Below are positions 2,907-35,657 of a stretch of DNA of 51,775 bases, in pieces. The position numbers and the translations under genes were made by a program. Source of the stretch: Escherichia phage vB_EcoP_06; the sequence record PP532814.1. One strand, given 5' to 3'. How positions within the stretch are numbered: position 1 is the first letter of the stretch; each line of letters opens with the position of its first letter. The notes under the pieces were generated by a model that worked only from the letters and a program-made list of their open reading frames with translations, ran no database searches and was not told the origin of the DNA.

Positions 2907-3274
2907 ACTATAACGAGATCGCAAGAATGGCAACCGAAGGAATTAACTTCTTTAGTGATAGCAACGGTGAGTTTAAGTGCATAACGCAGCGTGGAAGCGT
3001 TGAAATCATCGGAGGCGAAGAAGTACAAAAGCCAGAGATTAGTGTAATGATTAAAGGTTTAATTCGCTCCCCAAAAGTACGCGAGGTTGACGGCGAGACA
3101 ATACGAGTAACCGATAAGCTGGGAGTTTTCAACAATAAGGTTGAAATTAAGAACGGGTATCATATTGATGTTGATGGTGAATTATATGTTGTAGTTGAAG
3201 CAAGACCAATCAGACAAACCAATGTCACAGTTGCTTATCGGCCTATTTTGAGAAGGATTTCCGTGCATGGCTAA
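2903..3274 (+). CDS. putative head-tail joining (head closure) protein
   Basis: Overlapping start/stop with flanking genes in the neck module. Confidence 0.3.
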
Positions 3275-3710
3275 AAACTACACGATAAGGGAATTTCACG
3301 GCAACATTGATGCGTGGATAAACGCCGTTGATAGTGGACTAAAAGATTGCGTGGAGTTGTTCGCCGAAAAAGTACACACAGATTTGGTTAAGCGTTCTCC
3401 GGTAGATACTGGTCGTTACCGTGGAAACTGGCAGGTAACAGCAAATAAGCCGCCATTGTATGCGCTTAACCAGTACGACAAGCACGGCGACAAAACGATC
3501 GCGGAAGGCAAGCGCGCCATATACGCGATTTTACGAGGTGGCGGAGCAGTAAGAGCCATTTACTTTTCCAACATGCTTATTTATGCCAACGCGCTTGAGT
3601 ACGGTCATTCAAAACAAGCGCCAGCGGGTGTGCTTGGGATTGTAGCGGTTAAGTTGAGATCTTATATGGCTGAAGCAATAAAAGAGTCGAGGGATAAAAA
3701 TGCACTATGA
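3267..3710 (+). CDS. neck/tail-component protein, HK97 gp10-like
   Basis: Motif SPVDTGRYRGNW resembles the conserved VDTGxLRxSW signature of the HK97 gp10 family as I recall it; position in neck module. Confidence 0.5.
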   Translation: MAKNYTIREFHGNIDAWINAVDSGLKDCVELFAEKVHTDLVKRSPVDTGRYRGNWQVTANKPPLYALNQYDKHGDKTIAEGKRAIYAILRGGGAVRAIYFSNMLIYANALEYGHSKQAPAGVLGIVAVKLRSYMAEAIKESRDKNAL

Positions 3711-4098
3711 ATTAATGCTATCGGCGCGTAAGGCGCTGGCGACTGAATACGAAAGCAGATTCATGATCGCTTATGAAAACGTAGAGTTTACGCCACCTGG
3801 TGACGGTTCGCCGTGGTTGAAGTTTGACTATGCTGAAGTTGACACAGAATACTTGTCATTGGATCGCAAATGCGTTTCTTATATCGGAATGATTCAGGTT
3901 GGCATTGTGTTTCCACCAGGTTACGGAACTGACAGGCCGCGCGTTCTCGCTAAAGAGATTGCGCAATTCTTTTACGATGGTAAAATGCTGGAGCATGGTT
4001 ATATATATGAGGGTGCAAGAGTTCACAAGCCGCTCAAGAGTGAAAGCGGTTGGATTCTCCCAATAAGGTTTTATGTTCGAATTGAAACAAAGGAGTAA
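3700..4098 (+). CDS. putative tail terminator protein
   Basis: Position immediately upstream of the major tail protein gene; overlapping start with previous gene. Confidence 0.3.
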   Translation: MHYELMLSARKALATEYESRFMIAYENVEFTPPGDGSPWLKFDYAEVDTEYLSLDRKCVSYIGMIQVGIVFPPGYGTDRPRVLAKEIAQFFYDGKMLEHGYIYEGARVHKPLKSESGWILPIRFYVRIETKE

Positions 4099-23770: not shown

Positions 23771-25816
23771 ATGATTCCAAACATTGAAAAGCAAATATCA
23801 GCACTTGGTGAAGCGGTAATAAAATCCATTCAGGAGCGATTCACTGTTGGCGAGATTGTGCCTTACCCTTACCAGTGCGTTGCATACGCTGAGATCGCAA
23901 AGCGTATGAAAAATTATGAGCATCCATTCTTTGTTAAAGCGTCCGTATCGGCTGGCAAAACATTGATGTTTGCAATGGTTGCTCACCAGTGCCGGAAAAT
24001 GGGCTTGAAAATGATGGTCCTTGCTCGCCAGGCTGAGATTGTGGATCAGGATTCTGAAGAGATAACAAATCTTGGTGTGCCGAACTCCATCTATTGTGCA
24101 GGACTGAAGACAAAAAGCGCATACTTTCCGATCGTTGTTGGTTCTGAGGGAACTGTAGTTAATGGACTGTTTAAAGCGCTTGGCGACTATGTTCCGCACG
24201 TTATCGGGATCGACGAGTGTCACCAGGTGGATTGGGAAGACCTTGCCGACGCAATAGAGAAAGACGAGTCATTTTTACAAATGACAACTAAGAAAGGCGA
24301 AAAAGTACCAAATCCAGATTATGACATAACAAAGGGAAGCAGGAACAGAAATACAGAGTTCCTGATTGGTGAGGATGGCTTGCCAATGGAGGGAACAGGC
24401 CGCACACAATACACTGTCATTATCATGGAAATGATGCGCCGCTGCCGGAAAACATATGGTCATGAACTGCGCATATTTGGCATGACTGGATCGGAGTTTC
24501 GCGGCGTAGTCCCGATCCTGGTAGAAGACAAAAAACAGAAAGGATTCTGGCGTGAACAGGTTACTAATATTGACACCAACTACCTGATCAAATTCGGTTC
24601 TGTTGTGCCAACAAATTTTGGCGACGTTGGCGATCTAGGGTATGACCTTTCAGAGTTTGAGGCATCCAGTGAGGATGGCGTTGCAGACTTTGACGCTAAA
24701 ACGCTTCGCAGGATGGAACAAAAAATTCATGAAGAAGCGACCATGACAAAGCGCATCATGGCGAAAGTTCACGAGATCTGTAAAAACCGCAACGGCGTAC
24801 TTGTGACATGTGCAGGAGAAAGGCATTGCAAAGAGGCAGCGGCAGCGTTGCCACCTGGAACTACTTACAGGATCATTACTGGTAAGACTGGCGACAACCA
24901 GCGCAAGGAGTGGCTGAAGGAATCATACGAGGGGAAGGTAAAATACATCTTCCAGGTTCAGGCGCTAACAACTGGCGTTAACGTGCCGTTTTGGGATACG
25001 TCGGTTATTCTGCGTAAGATTGGATCGCTAACTTTGCTGATTCAGCTTTTAGGACGCGGAATGCGACTTCTTAAGAAATGGCATAAGGAACAAGGCTTCA
25101 AGAAAGATGATCACCTGGTTATGGATTTTTCAGGAACGATGGACGAGTTAGGTGAGCTTTATTTTGATCCGATACTGGAACAGGCGCAGCACCAGAAGCG
25201 ATTCAGGAACGGTAAAGATCCGAAACCTTGTCCTGTTTGCGGAACTCTTAACAGCTATTACGCTCGTCGTTGTATGCACGTAGACGAAAACGGAAACAGA
25301 TGCGAGTGGTTCTTTAAATTCAGGACATGTTATGATCAGATTGACCCGCGCACTAAAAAGATTATTCAGCGCGGTTGTGGAACGAAAAATGATATTGCGG
25401 CCAGGGTATGCAGACATTGCGACATGTCATTGATTGACCCTAACGAGAAATTAAGCGGAAAGCACTACACAAAAAACGACTGGTTCCAGGTGCAATCTTT
25501 CTCGGTTGACATGACGAAAAACCAGAAAGGGATAATATTTAATTATGAGCTTTCCGATGGCATAGACACTTTCAGAGCGCGTGAAATATTTTTCCCTGAA
25601 TCAGAAAGCCAGATTTGCCGCGCAAAATGGAGAAATGTTGCTCTTAAGCACATACCGGATCGCCGTATTGCTGGCATGGTGGCGAGCTATCGTAATGCAC
25701 GAAAAATAATGCAATATGTGAATCACATTATGCCGCCATCGCGTGTGACTCACCGCAAGACTAGCAAGGGTGAAGATAATTTGTACAAGAAGGACTTTAA
25801 TTATGGCAATGACTGA
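23771..25816 (+). CDS. SF2 DEAD/DEAH-box helicase with C-terminal zinc ribbons
   Basis: Walker A SAGKT, motif II IGIDECHQ, C-terminal CPVCG ... CRHC; RBS-supported ATG at 23771 downstream of a promoter box. Confidence 0.75.
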   Translation: MIPNIEKQISALGEAVIKSIQERFTVGEIVPYPYQCVAYAEIAKRMKNYEHPFFVKASVSAGKTLMFAMVAHQCRKMGLKMMVLARQAEIVDQDSEEITNLGVPNSIYCAGLKTKSAYFPIVVGSEGTVVNGLFKALGDYVPHVIGIDECHQVDWEDLADAIEKDESFLQMTTKKGEKVPNPDYDITKGSRNRNTEFLIGEDGLPMEGTGRTQYTVIIMEMMRRCRKTYGHELRIFGMTGSEFRGVVPILVEDKKQKGFWREQVTNIDTNYLIKFGSVVPTNFGDVGDLGYDLSEFEASSEDGVADFDAKTLRRMEQKIHEEATMTKRIMAKVHEICKNRNGVLVTCAGERHCKEAAAALPPGTTYRIITGKTGDNQRKEWLKESYEGKVKYIFQVQALTTGVNVPFWDTSVILRKIGSLTLLIQLLGRGMRLLKKWHKEQGFKKDDHLVMDFSGTMDELGELYFDPILEQAQHQKRFRNGKDPKPCPVCGTLNSYYARRCMHVDENGNRCEWFFKFRTCYDQIDPRTKKIIQRGCGTKNDIAARVCRHCDMSLIDPNEKLSGKHYTKNDWFQVQSFSVDMTKNQKGIIFNYELSDGIDTFRAREIFFPESESQICRAKWRNVALKHIPDRRIAGMVASYRNARKIMQYVNHIMPPSRVTHRKTSKGEDNLYKKDFNYGND

Positions 25817-26222
25817 TAAAGGCGATTATCTGGAGTTTTACGAAAGAGATCCGACGGATACGCTAAAAGAGGAATCACACCAGATTGGGGCGTTTCAATG
25901 GTTAACTTATGCTCATCCTGAATTGCTGGCATGGCATACGAAAAACGAGGGTGACAAGGGGATCGCCACGGCAATGATGGATCAGCAAGCCGGACTCGTT
26001 AAGGGCGTAAGTGATTTCATCATCCTGATTGGATTAAAAGGCCGTTACCCGTTCGCGGCAATAGAGATGAAGCGCGTAAATAAGTCAGGAAAGGGGAAGG
26101 CTTCACCAGTAAGCAAGGATCAAAAAGCCTTCTTGCGCCGTGTGCGTGAGCTTGGCGGATTCGCTGCCGTAACATACGGATATAAGCAATTCATGATCGC
26201 GGTAGAATACATGATGAAATAG
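25803..26222 (+). CDS. VRR-NUC domain nuclease
   Basis: Motif GLVKGVSDFIIL ... AIEMK matching VRR-NUC D ... E-x-K arrangement; start overlaps helicase stop. Confidence 0.55.
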   Translation: MAMTDKGDYLEFYERDPTDTLKEESHQIGAFQWLTYAHPELLAWHTKNEGDKGIATAMMDQQAGLVKGVSDFIILIGLKGRYPFAAIEMKRVNKSGKGKASPVSKDQKAFLRRVRELGGFAAVTYGYKQFMIAVEYMMK

Positions 26223-26296: not shown

Positions 26297-26998
26297 ATGA
26301 GCAAAGAAACCGAAGTGACATTTGAACAAATAGAACGCGAAACATTCATTGGCAATGCTCTTGCTACTGGTGGTCATTACCAGGCTGTTAAACCAAATCA
26401 ATATTTCAAAGTGACTGGCAACCGCTATAACGGAAGCAATACGCCGGACATTGTGCGCGATTTGTGGTCTACGCCGTCTGAGCTTGTCGAATGGATGGAG
26501 AGCGAATACGGTGATTATGACATCGACGCGGCGGCAAGCAAAGAAAATGCTGTATGTGAAAAATTCTACAGCAAGGAAACAAATTGCTTAAAGCGTTGGT
26601 GGGGTAGTAATAAGCATATATGGCTGAATCCACCGTATAGCAATATTACGCCATTTGTTAAGAAGGCGATTGAGCAAATGGAGCACAACAACCAGATCGA
26701 CATTCTGTTACCTTGCGACACATCAACAGGATGGTTTTATGAGGCGCAACAGCACGCAGCGGAAATAATCTGGATCACTGGAGAAGTTTACCAAGAGGAC
26801 GGAACAGAATATTCCCGTACCGGACGCCTGGCGTTCACTTCAGCGCTTACAGGCAAACCAGTGCAGGGTAACAATAAAGGAAGCGTTATTTTCATCATGC
26901 GCGAACTTAAAGAAGGCGAGCAGCAGAAAACGCGATACGTTAAGATCAGCGACATTTGCCCTTCAGTGGCAGAGCGTCGCGCACGGAAACGGAGCTAA
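26297..26998 (+). CDS. dam: DNA N6-adenine methyltransferase (phage Dam family)
   Basis: Motifs DIDAAAS and WLNPPYS (DPPY-type catalytic motif); promoter box upstream. Confidence 0.75.
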   Translation: MSKETEVTFEQIERETFIGNALATGGHYQAVKPNQYFKVTGNRYNGSNTPDIVRDLWSTPSELVEWMESEYGDYDIDAAASKENAVCEKFYSKETNCLKRWWGSNKHIWLNPPYSNITPFVKKAIEQMEHNNQIDILLPCDTSTGWFYEAQQHAAEIIWITGEVYQEDGTEYSRTGRLAFTSALTGKPVQGNNKGSVIFIMRELKEGEQQKTRYVKISDICPSVAERRARKRS

Positions 26999-31504: not shown

Positions 31505-33088
31505 TTACCCCAGCAATGTTGGATTTACGAAAACAACGCCATTAATCACACAAATATAATTTCTTTCTTCAAGCATCGGCAGCAGTTGCGTTTCCATACG
31601 CTTCATTACGCCAGCCTGACCAACAAACGGCTTAACTTTTCGTGCAGCCTCATATATGGCGCGAACATTCAAGATTCCCTTGTTAGCCTTACCGTGTCGA
31701 GTGATAATCTCGATTAGTTTACCCATTTCAGCATCATCACCAGCATAGCCAGAAGCGTTGGCGGCGCTAATGTATGTTTTGCTCAACTCGCTAAACATCA
31801 GCAGTGCTTCCTGAACGGTTTCAACCTCAATCTCTTTCGACTTTTGAGGGTATCCGCCAGGATTAAACCAATTGCGGATAGTGTGCAAAACCGAAGCAAT
31901 CCTGATCACCTGCTTATCCATTTTGCCAAGCGCACCGCGCAGCATTGTATGCGAATACTTTCCGCCATCGGCAAGGTGCGGTTCCATCTCCTGACGAGCC
32001 ATGTTAAGAACTCGCATTGCGGATTTGCTGATCTTAAGCTGGATGTTCGATTCACTCATGATGTTATGGATCAGCTTGAAATATTGGCTTTTCAGTTCTC
32101 CATCAACAGGTTCATAAGTAGAATCACCGTTATCATCAACAAACTTTCTACGGCCTAAAAATGATTCCTCACGCACAAGCAAATAACGCTCACTTACACC
32201 GATACCGCGCGATCCTGCATCCATGATGGCATTGATTGTTTCATCCTGGGCAATTACCGCCATACAGCCAAGAGCTTTAAAACTCATATTGTTGTCAGCG
32301 TTTGCACGAGCTATAGAAACATGACCGTGATCCCATGCTTTTAATACAAGTTCGCTGTTGGTTTTACGCTCGCTATTGGCATATGTCAGACCTAAAAGGC
32401 TGTTAATACTCGTTGCCTCGTCTGAAATTACAGCAAAGTTACCCTGGCGATTGTTGATTCTTGCAAGTCCTTCCGGCGTGGTGTCGGACACAGGGAAAAC
32501 GATGTCACACATCTTTTCCAGTTTTTCTTCCAGATCTTCTTTCTCCTGGTACAGAGATTCCATATCAGCGCCGGAGCGCTCGCTTTTCATCTCTTTTGCA
32601 AGACCTGCCAACTTTGCTTGAATCTTTTTTCTTTCCTTCTTTCGCTGATCGTTAATTCTTTCCACTTCTGCAACCATTGGAGCAAGTGCCAGGCTGTTAA
32701 CGGCAGATTTACCAGTTGAAGGAGGCTGGCTTGTGACAACATAAAGAGCGGTTGGTTGATCCGTTCCGTGATACTCAACAGTGAAGCGTCCAAGCATTGC
32801 AGCAGACACGCATCCGATAAAATGCATATATGCCGATGATTCAGGGAATTGAACAGATCGAGCAATGTTGCGCGCCAACTTTCCAACAACATCAACATCA
32901 TTGCCAAGAGAAATTACAGGGTAGCGATCGTTTCCGTTATTAACATCATTAACCTCACCCCAAAAGCTGGACGATTGACGGTATCCGTTTGCCTGAATTG
33001 ACACGCGCAACGGAGACAATCCTTGTGCATCAGCTAATTCGATAATTTGTTTTGGTGTTAGTTTATTGGTTTCAAACGAAAAATTCAT
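31505..33088 (-). CDS. P-loop NTPase, DUF3987-like putative replication-associated ATPase/helicase
   Basis: 527 aa; Walker A-like SQPPSTGKS, Walker B-like AVISDEAT; RBS AAAGGAG. Confidence 0.4.
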   Translation of the reverse strand: MNFSFETNKLTPKQIIELADAQGLSPLRVSIQANGYRQSSSFWGEVNDVNNGNDRYPVISLGNDVDVVGKLARNIARSVQFPESSAYMHFIGCVSAAMLGRFTVEYHGTDQPTALYVVTSQPPSTGKSAVNSLALAPMVAEVERINDQRKKERKKIQAKLAGLAKEMKSERSGADMESLYQEKEDLEEKLEKMCDIVFPVSDTTPEGLARINNRQGNFAVISDEATSINSLLGLTYANSERKTNSELVLKAWDHGHVSIARANADNNMSFKALGCMAVIAQDETINAIMDAGSRGIGVSERYLLVREESFLGRRKFVDDNGDSTYEPVDGELKSQYFKLIHNIMSESNIQLKISKSAMRVLNMARQEMEPHLADGGKYSHTMLRGALGKMDKQVIRIASVLHTIRNWFNPGGYPQKSKEIEVETVQEALLMFSELSKTYISAANASGYAGDDAEMGKLIEIITRHGKANKGILNVRAIYEAARKVKPFVGQAGVMKRMETQLLPMLEERNYICVINGVVFVNPTLLG

Positions 33089-33116
33089 TGATGATAACTC
33101 CTTTTTTGATGCGGCA

Positions 33117-33161
33117 ATAATACCGCACCAATGCTACCCGCATTTAACAAAAAATACTATT
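33117..33161 (-). promoter_or_regulatory. phage promoter box variant (AATAGTATTTTTTGTTAAATG) + 18 bp + -10 TATTAT (minus strand), upstream of DUF3987-like gene
   Basis: Same arrangement. Confidence 0.45.
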
Positions 33162-33378
33162 TGATCCGCTCTATTCTAACTAAGATTTTTTCTGGTTCCC
33201 TTGCGCTATAGCAATGCGCGGTTACGGAATCAGCAAAATCAAAATAAAGTGATTTGTGGTAAGAAAGACCAATCAGCCACCCAACCATCGTTTTCTTTAT
33301 TGGCCTGACTATATCGCCAGGATTGAAGGTTTTTGTTGCTGAATGAGTCACCTTATAGCGATATTCAGCCTTGATCAC
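33157..33378 (-). CDS. hypothetical protein (73 aa)
   Basis: ORF with overlapping start/stop coupling to upstream gene. Confidence 0.35.
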   Translation of the reverse strand: MIKAEYRYKVTHSATKTFNPGDIVRPIKKTMVGWLIGLSYHKSLYFDFADSVTAHCYSAREPEKILVRIERIK

Positions 33379-33761
33379 TTATACATAGCCTCAAACAAAT
33401 GACAGCCACCAGCGGAAAATCCAACTTCTTCGCGGTATAGCGTCCAGCGGTCGCCAGCCTCATCAAACACATAACCAGCAACAGCGCCAAGCGCGCGGCC
33501 TTGCTCAATCTGGTAGCGCTTCCCTTCTTTGAAATGCTTTTTACACGGGATCTTGTGATCTACAAAGGTGCATTTAATTGTTTTTGTCTTGATATGACGA
33601 TAGTCAGACTCAACAGCGTTTTGCCACTTACTACCCTTTGTAATGCTCTTTACCTGGAATTGTTCCAACTCGATCACATCATCGCTACCAGCAATTTTTT
33701 CGTATACAGCTTTATAACGACCGTTCATCAAAACGTTGGTTTTATTGCAGATAACTTTCAT
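33375..33761 (-). CDS. hypothetical protein (128 aa)
   Basis: RBS AAAGGAGAAATAAACG; downstream of promoter box. Confidence 0.45.
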   Translation of the reverse strand: MKVICNKTNVLMNGRYKAVYEKIAGSDDVIELEQFQVKSITKGSKWQNAVESDYRHIKTKTIKCTFVDHKIPCKKHFKEGKRYQIEQGRALGAVAGYVFDEAGDRWTLYREEVGFSAGGCHLFEAMYK

Positions 33762-33792
33762 CGTTTATTTCTCCTTTCGTTTCGGTGAAGTG

Positions 33793-33837
33793 ATTATGCC
33801 AGGCTTTTACACCTGGCTTTTAACAAAAAGTGCTATT
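33793..33837 (-). promoter_or_regulatory. phage promoter box + 18 bp + -10 CATAAT (minus strand)
   Basis: Spacer CCAGGTGTAAAAGCCTGG is palindromic. Confidence 0.5.
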
Positions 33838-34543
33838 TTGCGTTTGCTTCAAAGACGGCGCGAGCAAAACCGCGCGGCGTGAGGGAGCGGATCATCTTTG
33901 TGCGAGATGATTTTCCGCCAGTTTTGGCCCAACCAGGATTATCCTTGTTGTCCTCTTTCGGAAGGATTGTTGCGCGCGGAGGAATAACAAATCCGTTTCC
34001 AGTCCAAAGGCATGTTTTCTTAAAGTACCGATCGCGCGCAGGAATAATATCAGGAAAGTCTGGATGTTTATCATCTTCCGGCAGATAGCCAGCATAATCG
34101 CACGGATGGAACGTATAATCAGGCTTGCGCCATAACGTTGACAGCTTGCCTACAGGATTCTCTATCATGTACGGAACACCGAAATAATCAGCGATATGCG
34201 CCGCAATTTTGCAAGTGTCTGCGGCTTCATGTTGGAAGTTAGGATTTTCCATGCGCTTTTTAGCCCAATGGCGAGATCCGCTATTCGCAAGGTCAGTGCA
34301 CGGCGGAAATGCCATAATGAAATCAGGCTTACCCCAATTTTCAAGTTTTGCGGTATATTTGAATAGCTCATCAATCCACACATTAACGTAAAAAATATTG
34401 TCGTGGATTATGCGCACTGATTGGTAGTCGCCATGATCTGCATCATCGTAATTAAAGCAAATGCACTTATATCCAGCGTCGGCCCAATCTTTAACGGCCT
34501 TACCAGATCCATCAAACAAAGAGAAAATCAAACCTTTATACAT
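33833..34543 (-). CDS. DNA cytosine-5 methyltransferase-like protein (short, Dcm-like)
   Basis: Motif I-like LFDGSG, motif IV-like FPPCTDLANSG (catalytic PC), motif VI-like MIENPVG; only 236 aa, with no recognisable target-recognition domain. Confidence 0.45.
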   Translation of the reverse strand: MYKGLIFSLFDGSGKAVKDWADAGYKCICFNYDDADHGDYQSVRIIHDNIFYVNVWIDELFKYTAKLENWGKPDFIMAFPPCTDLANSGSRHWAKKRMENPNFQHEAADTCKIAAHIADYFGVPYMIENPVGKLSTLWRKPDYTFHPCDYAGYLPEDDKHPDFPDIIPARDRYFKKTCLWTGNGFVIPPRATILPKEDNKDNPGWAKTGGKSSRTKMIRSLTPRGFARAVFEANAK

Positions 34544-34552
34544 TTCATCACC

Positions 34553-34777
34553 TCAAAACGGAAAGCATCTCGGGCAGTTAGGATCAAAATTGCAGCCGCA
34601 ATCATTGACAATCATGGTTGGATCTGCAAATGCAGCGCCGCATTCATGGTCCATATCCATTTCACCAAGCGCATCATCAAGCGTCCTGATCTTATATGCC
34701 ACTTCAAGCGCGGCCTCTTTATTCAGTCCGGCATCTTCTGCTTTTTGCAGTCGCTCAAAAAAACCGTCTTGACTCAT
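34553..34777 (-). CDS. hypothetical Cys-rich protein (74 aa)
   Basis: C-terminal HECGAAFADPTMIVNDCGCNFDPNCPRCFPF; directly upstream of the Dcm-like gene. Confidence 0.4.
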   Translation of the reverse strand: MSQDGFFERLQKAEDAGLNKEAALEVAYKIRTLDDALGEMDMDHECGAAFADPTMIVNDCGCNFDPNCPRCFPF

Positions 34778-34887
34778 TTAATAAACTCCTTAATAACAGC
34801 AATAATAATTACAATCCCAGCAGTAAAAACAAGCAAACCCACAAGGCCAATCATAACACCAAATAAAATATCAAGAGTTTTAATCAT
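34774..34887 (-). CDS. small transmembrane peptide (37 aa), not in ORF track
   Basis: Translated by hand: MIKTLDILFGVMIGLVGLLVFTAGIVIIIAVIKEFIK; ATGA stop/start overlap with downstream gene; RBS GGTGA. Confidence 0.4.
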   Translation of the reverse strand: MIKTLDILFGVMIGLVGLLVFTAGIVIIIAVIKEFIK

Positions 34888-34899
34888 TTATTCACCATT

Positions 34900-34925
34900 G
34901 ATAAAACGGGAGGCGGAAACCTCCC
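34900..34925 (-). terminator. putative terminator (minus strand)
   Basis: On minus strand GGGAGG-TTTCCG-CCTCCC followed by GTTTTATC. Confidence 0.4.
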
Positions 34926-34934
34926 ATTGATTAA

Positions 34935-35162
34935 TCATACAGCCTTCCAGCTTTCAATAAACATGCTGTTTTCTTCCAGCAGTTTAATCAATTCTTCGCG
35001 CGTATATTTGCGGATTTTACTACCTGGATGTGAGCCAACAACAAACACACCTTTACCACTCGTGATGGTTAACTGGTTGATTCCGCAAGATTTATCCATC
35101 TTAATGGCGACGCGGTGATGTGCATCAACAGTGTGCATTATGTTAGTGACTTTAGCTTTCAT
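34935..35162 (-). CDS. hypothetical protein (75 aa)
   Basis: RBS GAGGATCGCATA; promoter box upstream; hairpin terminator downstream. Confidence 0.45.
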   Translation of the reverse strand: MKAKVTNIMHTVDAHHRVAIKMDKSCGINQLTITSGKGVFVVGSHPGSKIRKYTREELIKLLEENSMFIESWKAV

Positions 35163-35193
35163 TATGCGATCCTCGTTCGTTGTCGATGCGCTT

Positions 35194-35238
35194 AATATAC
35201 CAATCAGAGGCGCATCGGTTTTAACAAAAAGTGCTATT
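35194..35238 (-). promoter_or_regulatory. phage promoter box + 18 bp + -10 TATATT (minus strand)
   Basis: Same arrangement. Confidence 0.5.
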
Positions 35239-35515
35239 CAACAACAGATCCAGTTAAAGAGATAAGTGCTCTTGTGATCTTTCGTCTTCGATACTTACGC
35301 GCAACAACAGGAAGATTTTCACCGCTTTGATGCCCAAAAGTGATCGGCAACTCTTCTCCTCCAGACATGCCGAACTCAGTGTGTGTTGGTTTGTTCCGCC
35401 ACCCCTGGATAAAGCCGAAACGGTCACGAGTTATGTACCTGTAGTTGTTCGGGAGGGGCAATTGTATCCCATCAAAATCCACAGTATCGGTATAGCTGTA
35501 AAACTTAGAACTCAT
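35234..35515 (-). CDS. hypothetical protein (93 aa)
   Basis: ATG at 35515 overlaps the stop region of the upstream small ORF. Confidence 0.4.
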   Translation of the reverse strand: MSSKFYSYTDTVDFDGIQLPLPNNYRYITRDRFGFIQGWRNKPTHTEFGMSGGEELPITFGHQSGENLPVVARKYRRRKITRALISLTGSVVE

Positions 35516-35657
35516 AGTCAACAACCCCAAATTCGTTAACAATTTGCGCCTTGTAGAAGCCGCCATTTTTCGCCAGGTTGTAACAGGACGCTACAGTTTC
35601 AAATTCGCGCACTTCCGGCTTGCTGTTTTCGTGTTCCCAGGTAATCAGAGTAACCAT
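35505..35657 (-). CDS. hypothetical small protein (50 aa), not in ORF track
   Basis: ATG with RBS GAGGATTTGAAA directly downstream of promoter box and -10 TATATT. Confidence 0.4.
   Translation of the reverse strand: MVTLITWEHENSKPEVREFETVASCYNLAKNGGFYKAQIVNEFGVVDYEF

Follow-up and report, generated by a model that had tools for sequence, protein, structure and literature searches.

Escherichia phage vB_EcoP_06 (sequence record PP532814.1) carries on its minus strand a small gene, dcm, whose 236-residue product resembles C5-methyltransferases and which lies next to two shorter open reading frames (ORFs) of 74 and 37 residues (Table 1). The whole stretch of 51,775 nucleotides that we analyzed is called the window below. 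Our main finding is that the 236-residue protein is very probably a self-sufficient, single-chain, compact C5-cytosine DNA methyltransferase, that it belongs to a widespread phage family and plausibly protects CCWGG sites, and that its two neighbors are not subunits of it. The enzyme is already known: it was characterized, in a phage almost identical to this one, as what triggers retron Ec86. By sequence identity the window belongs to the genus Hanrivervirus (Drexlerviridae, Tempevirinae), at about 96% to Shigella phage pSf-1 and Escherichia phage KarlJaspers (Bas06); the region matches these two and further members of the genus at 93-97%.

The methyltransferase motifs are preserved throughout the family, as judged over an alignment of 47 homologues. 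Motif I reads FSLFDGSG (residues 7-14), with F10, G12, S13 and G14 invariant; motif IV, AFPPCTDLANSG (residues 78-89), holds the invariant pair P81-C82, which corresponds in alignments to the PC motifs of DNMT3B and E. coli Dcm; and motif VI, IENPVG (residues 127-132), has E128-N129-P130 invariant, its third residue being proline, not valine. The region of motif VIII, R170-D-R-Y-F-K-K, keeps D171, Y173 and K175 invariant and lacks the conserved RxR. A motif IX-like stretch, R219-S-L-T-P-R-G225, is invariant, as is the C-terminal N234, and the chain ends 12 residues past motif IX. Between the strand equivalent to motif VIII (177-182) and the helix of motif IX (213-219) there are only residues 183-212, about 30 amino acids with a predicted local distance difference test (pLDDT) score of 71-85, and neither the alignment nor the AlphaFold2 model of the protein places a substantial target-recognition domain between these two motifs.

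The AlphaFold2 model as a whole has a pLDDT of 89.8 and predicts a class I methyltransferase fold with C5-methyltransferase topology; its top Foldseek matches are all DNMT3A, DNMT3B or DNMT3C (E ~1e-7, probability 1.0). The structure table gives, as figures that carry no label, 13.8 for DNMT3B, 12.7 for the prophage C5 methyltransferase 3g7u, 12.4 for both DNMT3A and the C5-carboxymethyltransferase 8yf3, 11.3 for DNMT1, 11.1 for M.HhaI and 10.7 for M.HaeIII. As for sequence searches, the protein matches PHROG 757 ('DNA methyltransferase') at 1.8e-86, an NCBIfam scan returned no match to it, and PDB searches with the single sequence and with a profile gave marginal matches to DNMT3B only (E 0.2-0.9). 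The Pfam family PF00145 is reached at E < 0.01 by 11 of the 47 homologues.

A word-indexed search yielded 3289 relatives (best E = 1e-148), and an exhaustive search grouped the family into 1249 clusters at 50% identity. Of the 150 representatives listed, almost all have 200-260 residues, and the short length is therefore a property of the family and not the result of truncation. Members occur in 1501 phage records, including Jersey-like, Dhillonvirus, Vequintavirinae and phi92-like phages. These results, together with the 5-methylcytosine (5mC) activity published for an apparently identical protein, bear out the proposal of an initial annotation, made from the letters of the window, that the gene encodes a short C5-methyltransferase with no recognizable target-recognition domain: only residues 183-212 are available for one, and the motifs quoted there (FDGSG, PPCTDLANSG and ENP) are all present and invariant. 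The profile and AlphaFold comparison suggested in it leads to PHROG 757 and to a predicted C5-methyltransferase core nearest to DNMT3A and DNMT3B.

Broken copies of the gene also exist. It is split into two or three pieces in Shigella phage 2019SD1 (L156) and in a 50,552-bp Tunavirinae contig (L092), which are either pseudogenes or assembly errors; in 2019SD1 the homologue of the 74-residue protein is also truncated, before its cysteine knuckle.

The published counterpart is the enzyme of KarlJaspers strain Hzau42 ('K42'), a phage of ~51.7 kb that is 95.4% identical to Bas06 (bioRxiv 10.1101/2023.08.16.553469; a later version is Wang et al., Cell Rep 2024, 43:114857, as cited in PMC12871103). 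In that study, four out of four Ec86 escapers had lesions in the 711-bp dcm or just upstream of it, and K42 Dcm expressed alone was toxic only when Ec86 was present. Liquid chromatography-mass spectrometry revealed high 5mC on the multicopy single-stranded DNA (msDNA) of retron Ec86 with wild-type K42 Dcm; a C82A/E128A/K175A/K176A quadruple mutant, in which K175 and K176 were treated as substrate-binding residues, was inactive and gave no high msDNA 5mC. Mutation of CCTGG in the msDNA stem led to loss of defence (bioRxiv 10.1101/2023.08.16.553469).

The window agrees with this description point by point. Its gene is likewise of 711 bp in a Hanrivervirus genome of ~51.7 kb, and C82, E128, K175 and K176 occupy identical positions in the 236-residue protein. 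When the window is read against the account in the paper, two escaper sites appear to have their counterparts: a G at coding position 451, the first base of the Ala151 codon, and, for the '-9 C-to-A' escaper, the plus-strand C at 34552, which lies 9 nucleotides upstream of the dcm start and inside GAGG. Moreover, the protein is 98% identical to its counterpart in Bas06, which bears the annotation 'Dcm-like C5 cytosine methyltransferase'; the other two ORFs are annotated there as hypothetical proteins. The 236-residue protein is apparently the same as K42 Dcm, and probably differs from it in nothing; the phage of the window may be K42 or one nearly identical to it.

Site counts suggest, indirectly, that CCWGG is the sequence that the enzyme protects. 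Against a maximal-order Markov expectation, the window has 127 CCWGG sites for 123 expected (observed/expected ratio, O/E, 1.03), and O/E is 1.0-1.4 in all Drexlerviridae groups that carry the methyltransferase, including the Tunavirinae that have the gene elsewhere. Among phages devoid of it, BrunoManser keeps 4 sites for 69 expected (O/E 0.06), a BrunoManser-like contig has an O/E of 0.17, and T1 has 83 for 102 (O/E 0.82). The retention of CCWGG in carriers and its purge from BrunoManser fit protection by the phage enzyme against EcoRII-type restriction. The initial annotation had offered two readings of the cluster, an anti-restriction module or an unusual split modification enzyme; these counts in phages with and without the gene make an anti-restriction role at CCWGG plausible, whereas the split enzyme is not supported.

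Other sites behave differently from CCWGG. Other palindromes are purged with or without the methyltransferase gene (for example, GGWCC at 0/110 in one group). Most 6-bp palindromes are close to zero in the window, in which GCGC, like GATC (295 sites, O/E 1.02, hence no avoidance) and CCWGG, stands at expectation. There are two EcoRI, one EcoRV and two BamHI sites in positions 1-51775, and none for PstI, HindIII, SalI, PvuII or KpnI, each against 2-17 expected; CCSGG occurs twice for 13.6 expected, and GGCC has an O/E of 0.52. The DNA of pSf-1 is reportedly resistant to several restriction enzymes, which the extreme site avoidance in the window fits. The BrunoManser genome (L083) shows approximately the reverse of the window's profile, with no GGWCC or GGSCC and an excess of CCSGG (152 vs 97 expected). 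The scarcity of CCSGG in the window was considered as a signature of specificity and rejected, as O/E is 0.98-1.58 in the other carrier groups of Drexlerviridae.

Motifs and fold together suggest how the enzyme would work. It would have a DNMT3-like Rossmann catalytic core in which FDGSG binds S-adenosylmethionine, Cys82 in the PC motif makes the nucleophilic attack, and N3 is protonated by Glu128, which lies in an ENV-type motif that here reads ENP. A single C-terminal helix would combine motifs IX and X, with about 30 residues standing in place of a target-recognition domain. During infection, CCWGG sites of the replicating phage DNA would become methylated, and this methylation, with that of the T1-type Dam, would guard the genome from EcoRII-type restriction. 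Retron Ec86 senses the apparently identical K42 enzyme through methylation of its msDNA, as the literature shows. The 74- and 37-residue genes would be small early genes in their own right, within a block that is syntenic in Drexlerviridae; they appear to share one transcription unit with dcm and are predicted to be translationally coupled to each other.

This architecture departs from those of better known C5 methyltransferases. The protein has in common with DNMT3A and DNMT3B the 'PC(N/T)DLS' form of motif IV and a recognition region that is small relative to those of bacterial enzymes, but identity is only 16-18%, the catalytic domain of DNMT3 exceeds the phage protein in length by ~50 residues, and the phage protein has no regulatory domains. 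It is ~90 residues shorter than M.HhaI and M.HaeIII (PF00145) and falls below the Pfam gathering score; unlike in these enzymes, the QxRxR of motif VIII is not conserved in its family, motifs IX and X are fused, and the recognition region has ~30 residues instead of ~80. With E. coli Dcm and M.EcoRII it shares the product, 5mC, and the probable target, CCWGG. However, host Dcm has 472 residues and a large target-recognition domain that the phage protein lacks. Orthology between the two was considered and rejected: they differ twofold in length, and profile comparison aligns motif IV only, so that 'Dcm-like' is a functional label. To our knowledge, hardly any C5 DNA methyltransferase architecture that has experimental support is smaller than the 236-residue type.

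The gene is the phage factor sensed by retron Ec86, and it probably allows T1-like phages to keep CCWGG sites that relatives without the methyltransferase have purged. As this role has been published for an essentially identical phage, our analysis adds no new kind of system. What remains is of modest value: a minimal C5 methyltransferase with an unexplained specificity drawn from a region of ~30 residues, and, beside it in most Drexlerviridae, a conserved and very acidic protein with a cysteine knuckle.

The latter is the 74-residue protein, which the initial annotation had described as Cys-rich and possibly zinc-binding, and as a possible specificity or accessory subunit. The first half of this description stands, as none of 31 sequences departs from C60, C62, C68 and C71, and the resulting CxC...CxxC pattern of four putative metal ligands is kept in divergent homologues from Webervirus and elsewhere; the subunit role is not supported. 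The protein matches PHROG 9323 (1.5e-39), and Pfam and NCBIfam scans of it and of the 37-residue peptide gave sub-threshold noise only. Its isoelectric point (pI) is 4.2 and its net charge about -9, and homologues, including those of Tunavirinae, range from -12 to -17. The AlphaFold2 model (pLDDT 62.6) has three short N-terminal helices, a disordered acidic linker and an unstructured knuckle, and is too poor for a fold search. Labels of 'cytosine methylase' that GenBank records attach to this small ORF were dismissed as annotation spill-over.

Throughout Drexlerviridae the two genes remain neighbors, even where identity falls to 43% and 47%. In 56 loci of this family the knuckle is present with a methyltransferase within 500 nucleotides downstream, in 13 the knuckle is absent and the methyltransferase is elsewhere or missing, and three are exceptions to the pairing. 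In 45 methyltransferase loci from outside Drexlerviridae (Jersey-like, 52-57-kb and other phages), there is neither a homologue of the 74-residue protein within 4 kb nor a consistent Cys-rich neighbor. In Tunavirinae an intact methyltransferase of 234 residues lies 2-3 kb away from the 74-residue homologue, which there has none of the knuckle cysteines, and no knuckle protein stands beside the enzyme; BrunoManser and T1 retain the knuckle-less homologue and have no methyltransferase anywhere in the genome. Exceptions run in both directions. One Webervirus contig (L106, IMGVR_UViG_3300045988_004049) keeps the knuckle protein and has no methyltransferase in the slot, and at another locus (L109) the methyltransferase accompanies a knuckle-less protein. 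In the former, the slot (3232-3798) is filled by a Cys-rich ORF of 188 residues resembling an HNH homing endonuclease; in contigs that are nearly the same elsewhere, L105 among them, this slot contains the methyltransferase gene, and the HNH-like ORF looks like a recent replacement of that gene.

Several observations weigh against our interpretation. PF00145 gives the 236-residue protein 11.6 bits for a cut-off of 22, over residues 7-95 only, and hhalign against E. coli Dcm finds 22 columns around motif IV with a probability of 1.4%. The CCWGG contrast comes from a few non-carrier lineages that are related and hence not phylogenetically independent; T1, which has no methyltransferase gene, avoids the site only mildly; and carriers outside Drexlerviridae show a mild under-representation (O/E 0.67-0.85). 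The strong co-occurrence of the knuckle with a directly downstream methyltransferase also counts on this side, and we retain a modulatory link between the two proteins as a minority possibility. Moreover, the CCWGG specificity of K42 Dcm was assumed by analogy with host Dcm and never mapped, the support for it being the loss of defence upon mutation of CCTGG in the msDNA, and MG1655 has a Dcm of its own, yet msDNA is poorly methylated without the phage enzyme (bioRxiv 10.1101/2023.08.16.553469). The phage enzyme may differ from host Dcm in target, in substrate form or simply in dose.

Some of these points would follow if the protein were a genuine C5 methyltransferase with a target or purpose other than CCWGG anti-restriction, be it a relaxed or different specificity, a preference for hairpin or single-stranded DNA, evasion of another defence or regulation of the phage. 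The high msDNA methylation obtained with the phage enzyme and not with the host Dcm of MG1655 speaks for this, as do the small recognition region, the lack of CCWGG enrichment in non-Drexlerviridae carriers and the fact that the nearest structural relatives, the DNMT3 enzymes, are CpG enzymes, unlike Dcm. Nevertheless, a higher dose could by itself account for the msDNA result, the mutation of CCTGG in msDNA abolishes sensing (bioRxiv 10.1101/2023.08.16.553469), and every Drexlerviridae lineage with the gene tolerates CCWGG, which one lineage without it has purged; we regard another target as unlikely. The compact enzyme might instead owe its specificity to a partner, the 74-residue protein binding zinc and serving as a specificity or accessory subunit or as a regulator, so as to compensate for the missing target-recognition domain. 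Such a two-component enzyme could draw on the 9-nucleotide distance between the genes, their apparent common transcription unit, their joint conservation and pairing across Drexlerviridae, and the invariance of the four cysteines. It is nonetheless highly improbable. All motifs from I to IX lie on the 236-residue chain, and the enzyme alone was active in vivo (bioRxiv 10.1101/2023.08.16.553469), which leaves the split modification enzyme of the initial annotation unsupported. Intact family members without the partner occur in Tunavirinae and in Jersey-like, 52-57-kb and other phages; L106 and L109 break the pairing in opposite directions; and because the knuckle-less cases other than the exceptions all fall in one clade, Tunavirinae, the association amounts essentially to one evolutionary event. 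The acidity of the 74-residue protein argues against a DNA-reading module. Fusions of the two genes, which would have been of the Rosetta-stone kind, were considered and rejected: homologues of 255-262 residues are gene-caller artefacts of an upstream start, reading the 3' end of the neighboring gene in another frame or unrelated upstream sequence. We conclude that the 74-residue protein is an independent small early protein, encoded by a conserved Drexlerviridae gene, and not an enzyme subunit.

Two further proposals give the 74-residue protein a task of its own. It could be a dedicated modulator of the adjacent mini-methyltransferase, timing or restraining its activity or shielding it from Ec86-type sensing, with a knuckle that co-evolved with the downstream dcm; as a separate part of this proposal, the mini-enzyme would reach 5-bp specificity through its loop of ~30 residues, perhaps by DNMT3-like dimerization on a palindromic site. 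We rate this as distinctly unlikely. Known anti-restriction DNA mimics are extremely acidic, and so are the 74-residue protein and its Tunavirinae homologues (net charge -9 to -17), which leads to the idea of a dedicated anti-defence cassette of three genes, comprising the methyltransferase, a DNA mimic or protein-binding inhibitor, and the membrane peptide as a third effector. The position of the genes in an early-gene block, after a terminator-like hairpin, agrees with this idea. However, no profile or structure matches any anti-defence family, the whole block from the 75-residue gene to the helicase is syntenic among relatives, so that adjacency says little, and the slot of the membrane peptide is empty or occupied by unrelated ORFs in many relatives. 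A three-gene cassette is, on balance, very unlikely, and we return to a self-sufficient enzyme whose neighbors are separate genes.

The 37-residue peptide has one hydrophobic span (grand average of hydropathy 2.0). Close relatives have an ORF of 36-42 residues that likewise overlaps the next start in ATGA, even though no more than ~68-75% of residues are shared between the peptides; another genus has an unrelated hydrophobic ORF of 40 residues in the slot, and in other relatives the slot is empty or holds a protein of 117 residues. The ORF is probably a real but dispensable micro-gene that fills a variable slot, and we found no tie between the peptide and methylation.

Table 1. Features of the dcm locus, and the Dam gene, in the window.
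Feature	Position	Strand	Basis
dcm, compact C5-cytosine DNA methyltransferase, 236 residues, 711 bp	33833-34543	minus	ORF list and motifs
GAGG Shine-Dalgarno sequence of dcm, overlapping the TGA stop of the 74-residue ORF	34551-34554	minus	sequence reading
Acidic protein, 74 residues: helical N-terminal part, C-terminal CxC-x5-CxxC-xPF knuckle	34553-34777	minus	ORF list, PHROG 9323
Single-pass hydrophobic peptide, 37 residues	34774-34887	minus	ORF list; bas06_0057 (hypothetical protein) in KarlJaspers
Terminator-like hairpin GGGAGG-UUUCCG-CCUCCC, then UUUU (AU 3' of listed span)	34903-34925	minus	folding
T1-type Dam N6-adenine methyltransferase	26297-26998	plus	Pfam PF05869, 1.7e-60

The three minus-strand ORFs lie where the initial annotation had placed them, with the ATGA overlap described in it: positions 34774-34777 read tcat on the plus strand, that is, ATGA on the coding strand, and the stop of the 37-residue ORF overlaps the start of the 74-residue one. 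From the stop of the latter, which the GAGG sequence overlaps, a spacer of 9 nucleotides leads to the ATG of dcm. The terminator-like hairpin of Table 1 sits between the upstream 75-residue gene and the 37-residue ORF (-17.6 kcal/mol, z = -2.85). Its form suggests an intrinsic terminator or an attenuator placed midway through the block of early genes, and a consensus terminator scan did not list it. No minus-strand sigma-70 site was found by a promoter scan in 33000-35600, and an Rfam search of the window gave no match to an RNA family. Just downstream of the dcm stop, at 33786-33812, there is an intergenic hairpin, GCCAGG-TGTAAAA-GCCTGGC on the coding strand, which is itself made of CCAGG/CCTGG sites, the presumed target of the enzyme.

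The phage carries both an adenine and a cytosine methyltransferase gene, as had been proposed, Dam being identified by its Pfam match. Directly upstream of Dam, on the plus strand, positions 25770-26222 encode a protein of 150 residues with a VRR-NUC nuclease domain (PF08774, 1.4e-9); by eye, Jersey-like loci, for instance L036, likewise have an ORF similar to VRR-NUC close to the methyltransferase. Finally, 20-39 unannotated GenBank records MG0656xx of 47-50 kb, which carry the name 'Campylobacter phage' with C. jejuni as host, match this Hanrivervirus block (positions 33300-35300 of the window) at ~95-97% identity, and the 74- and 37-residue proteins have also been deposited as 'Chlamydia trachomatis' CRI74371 and CRI74370; these labels probably reflect host mislabelling or contamination.

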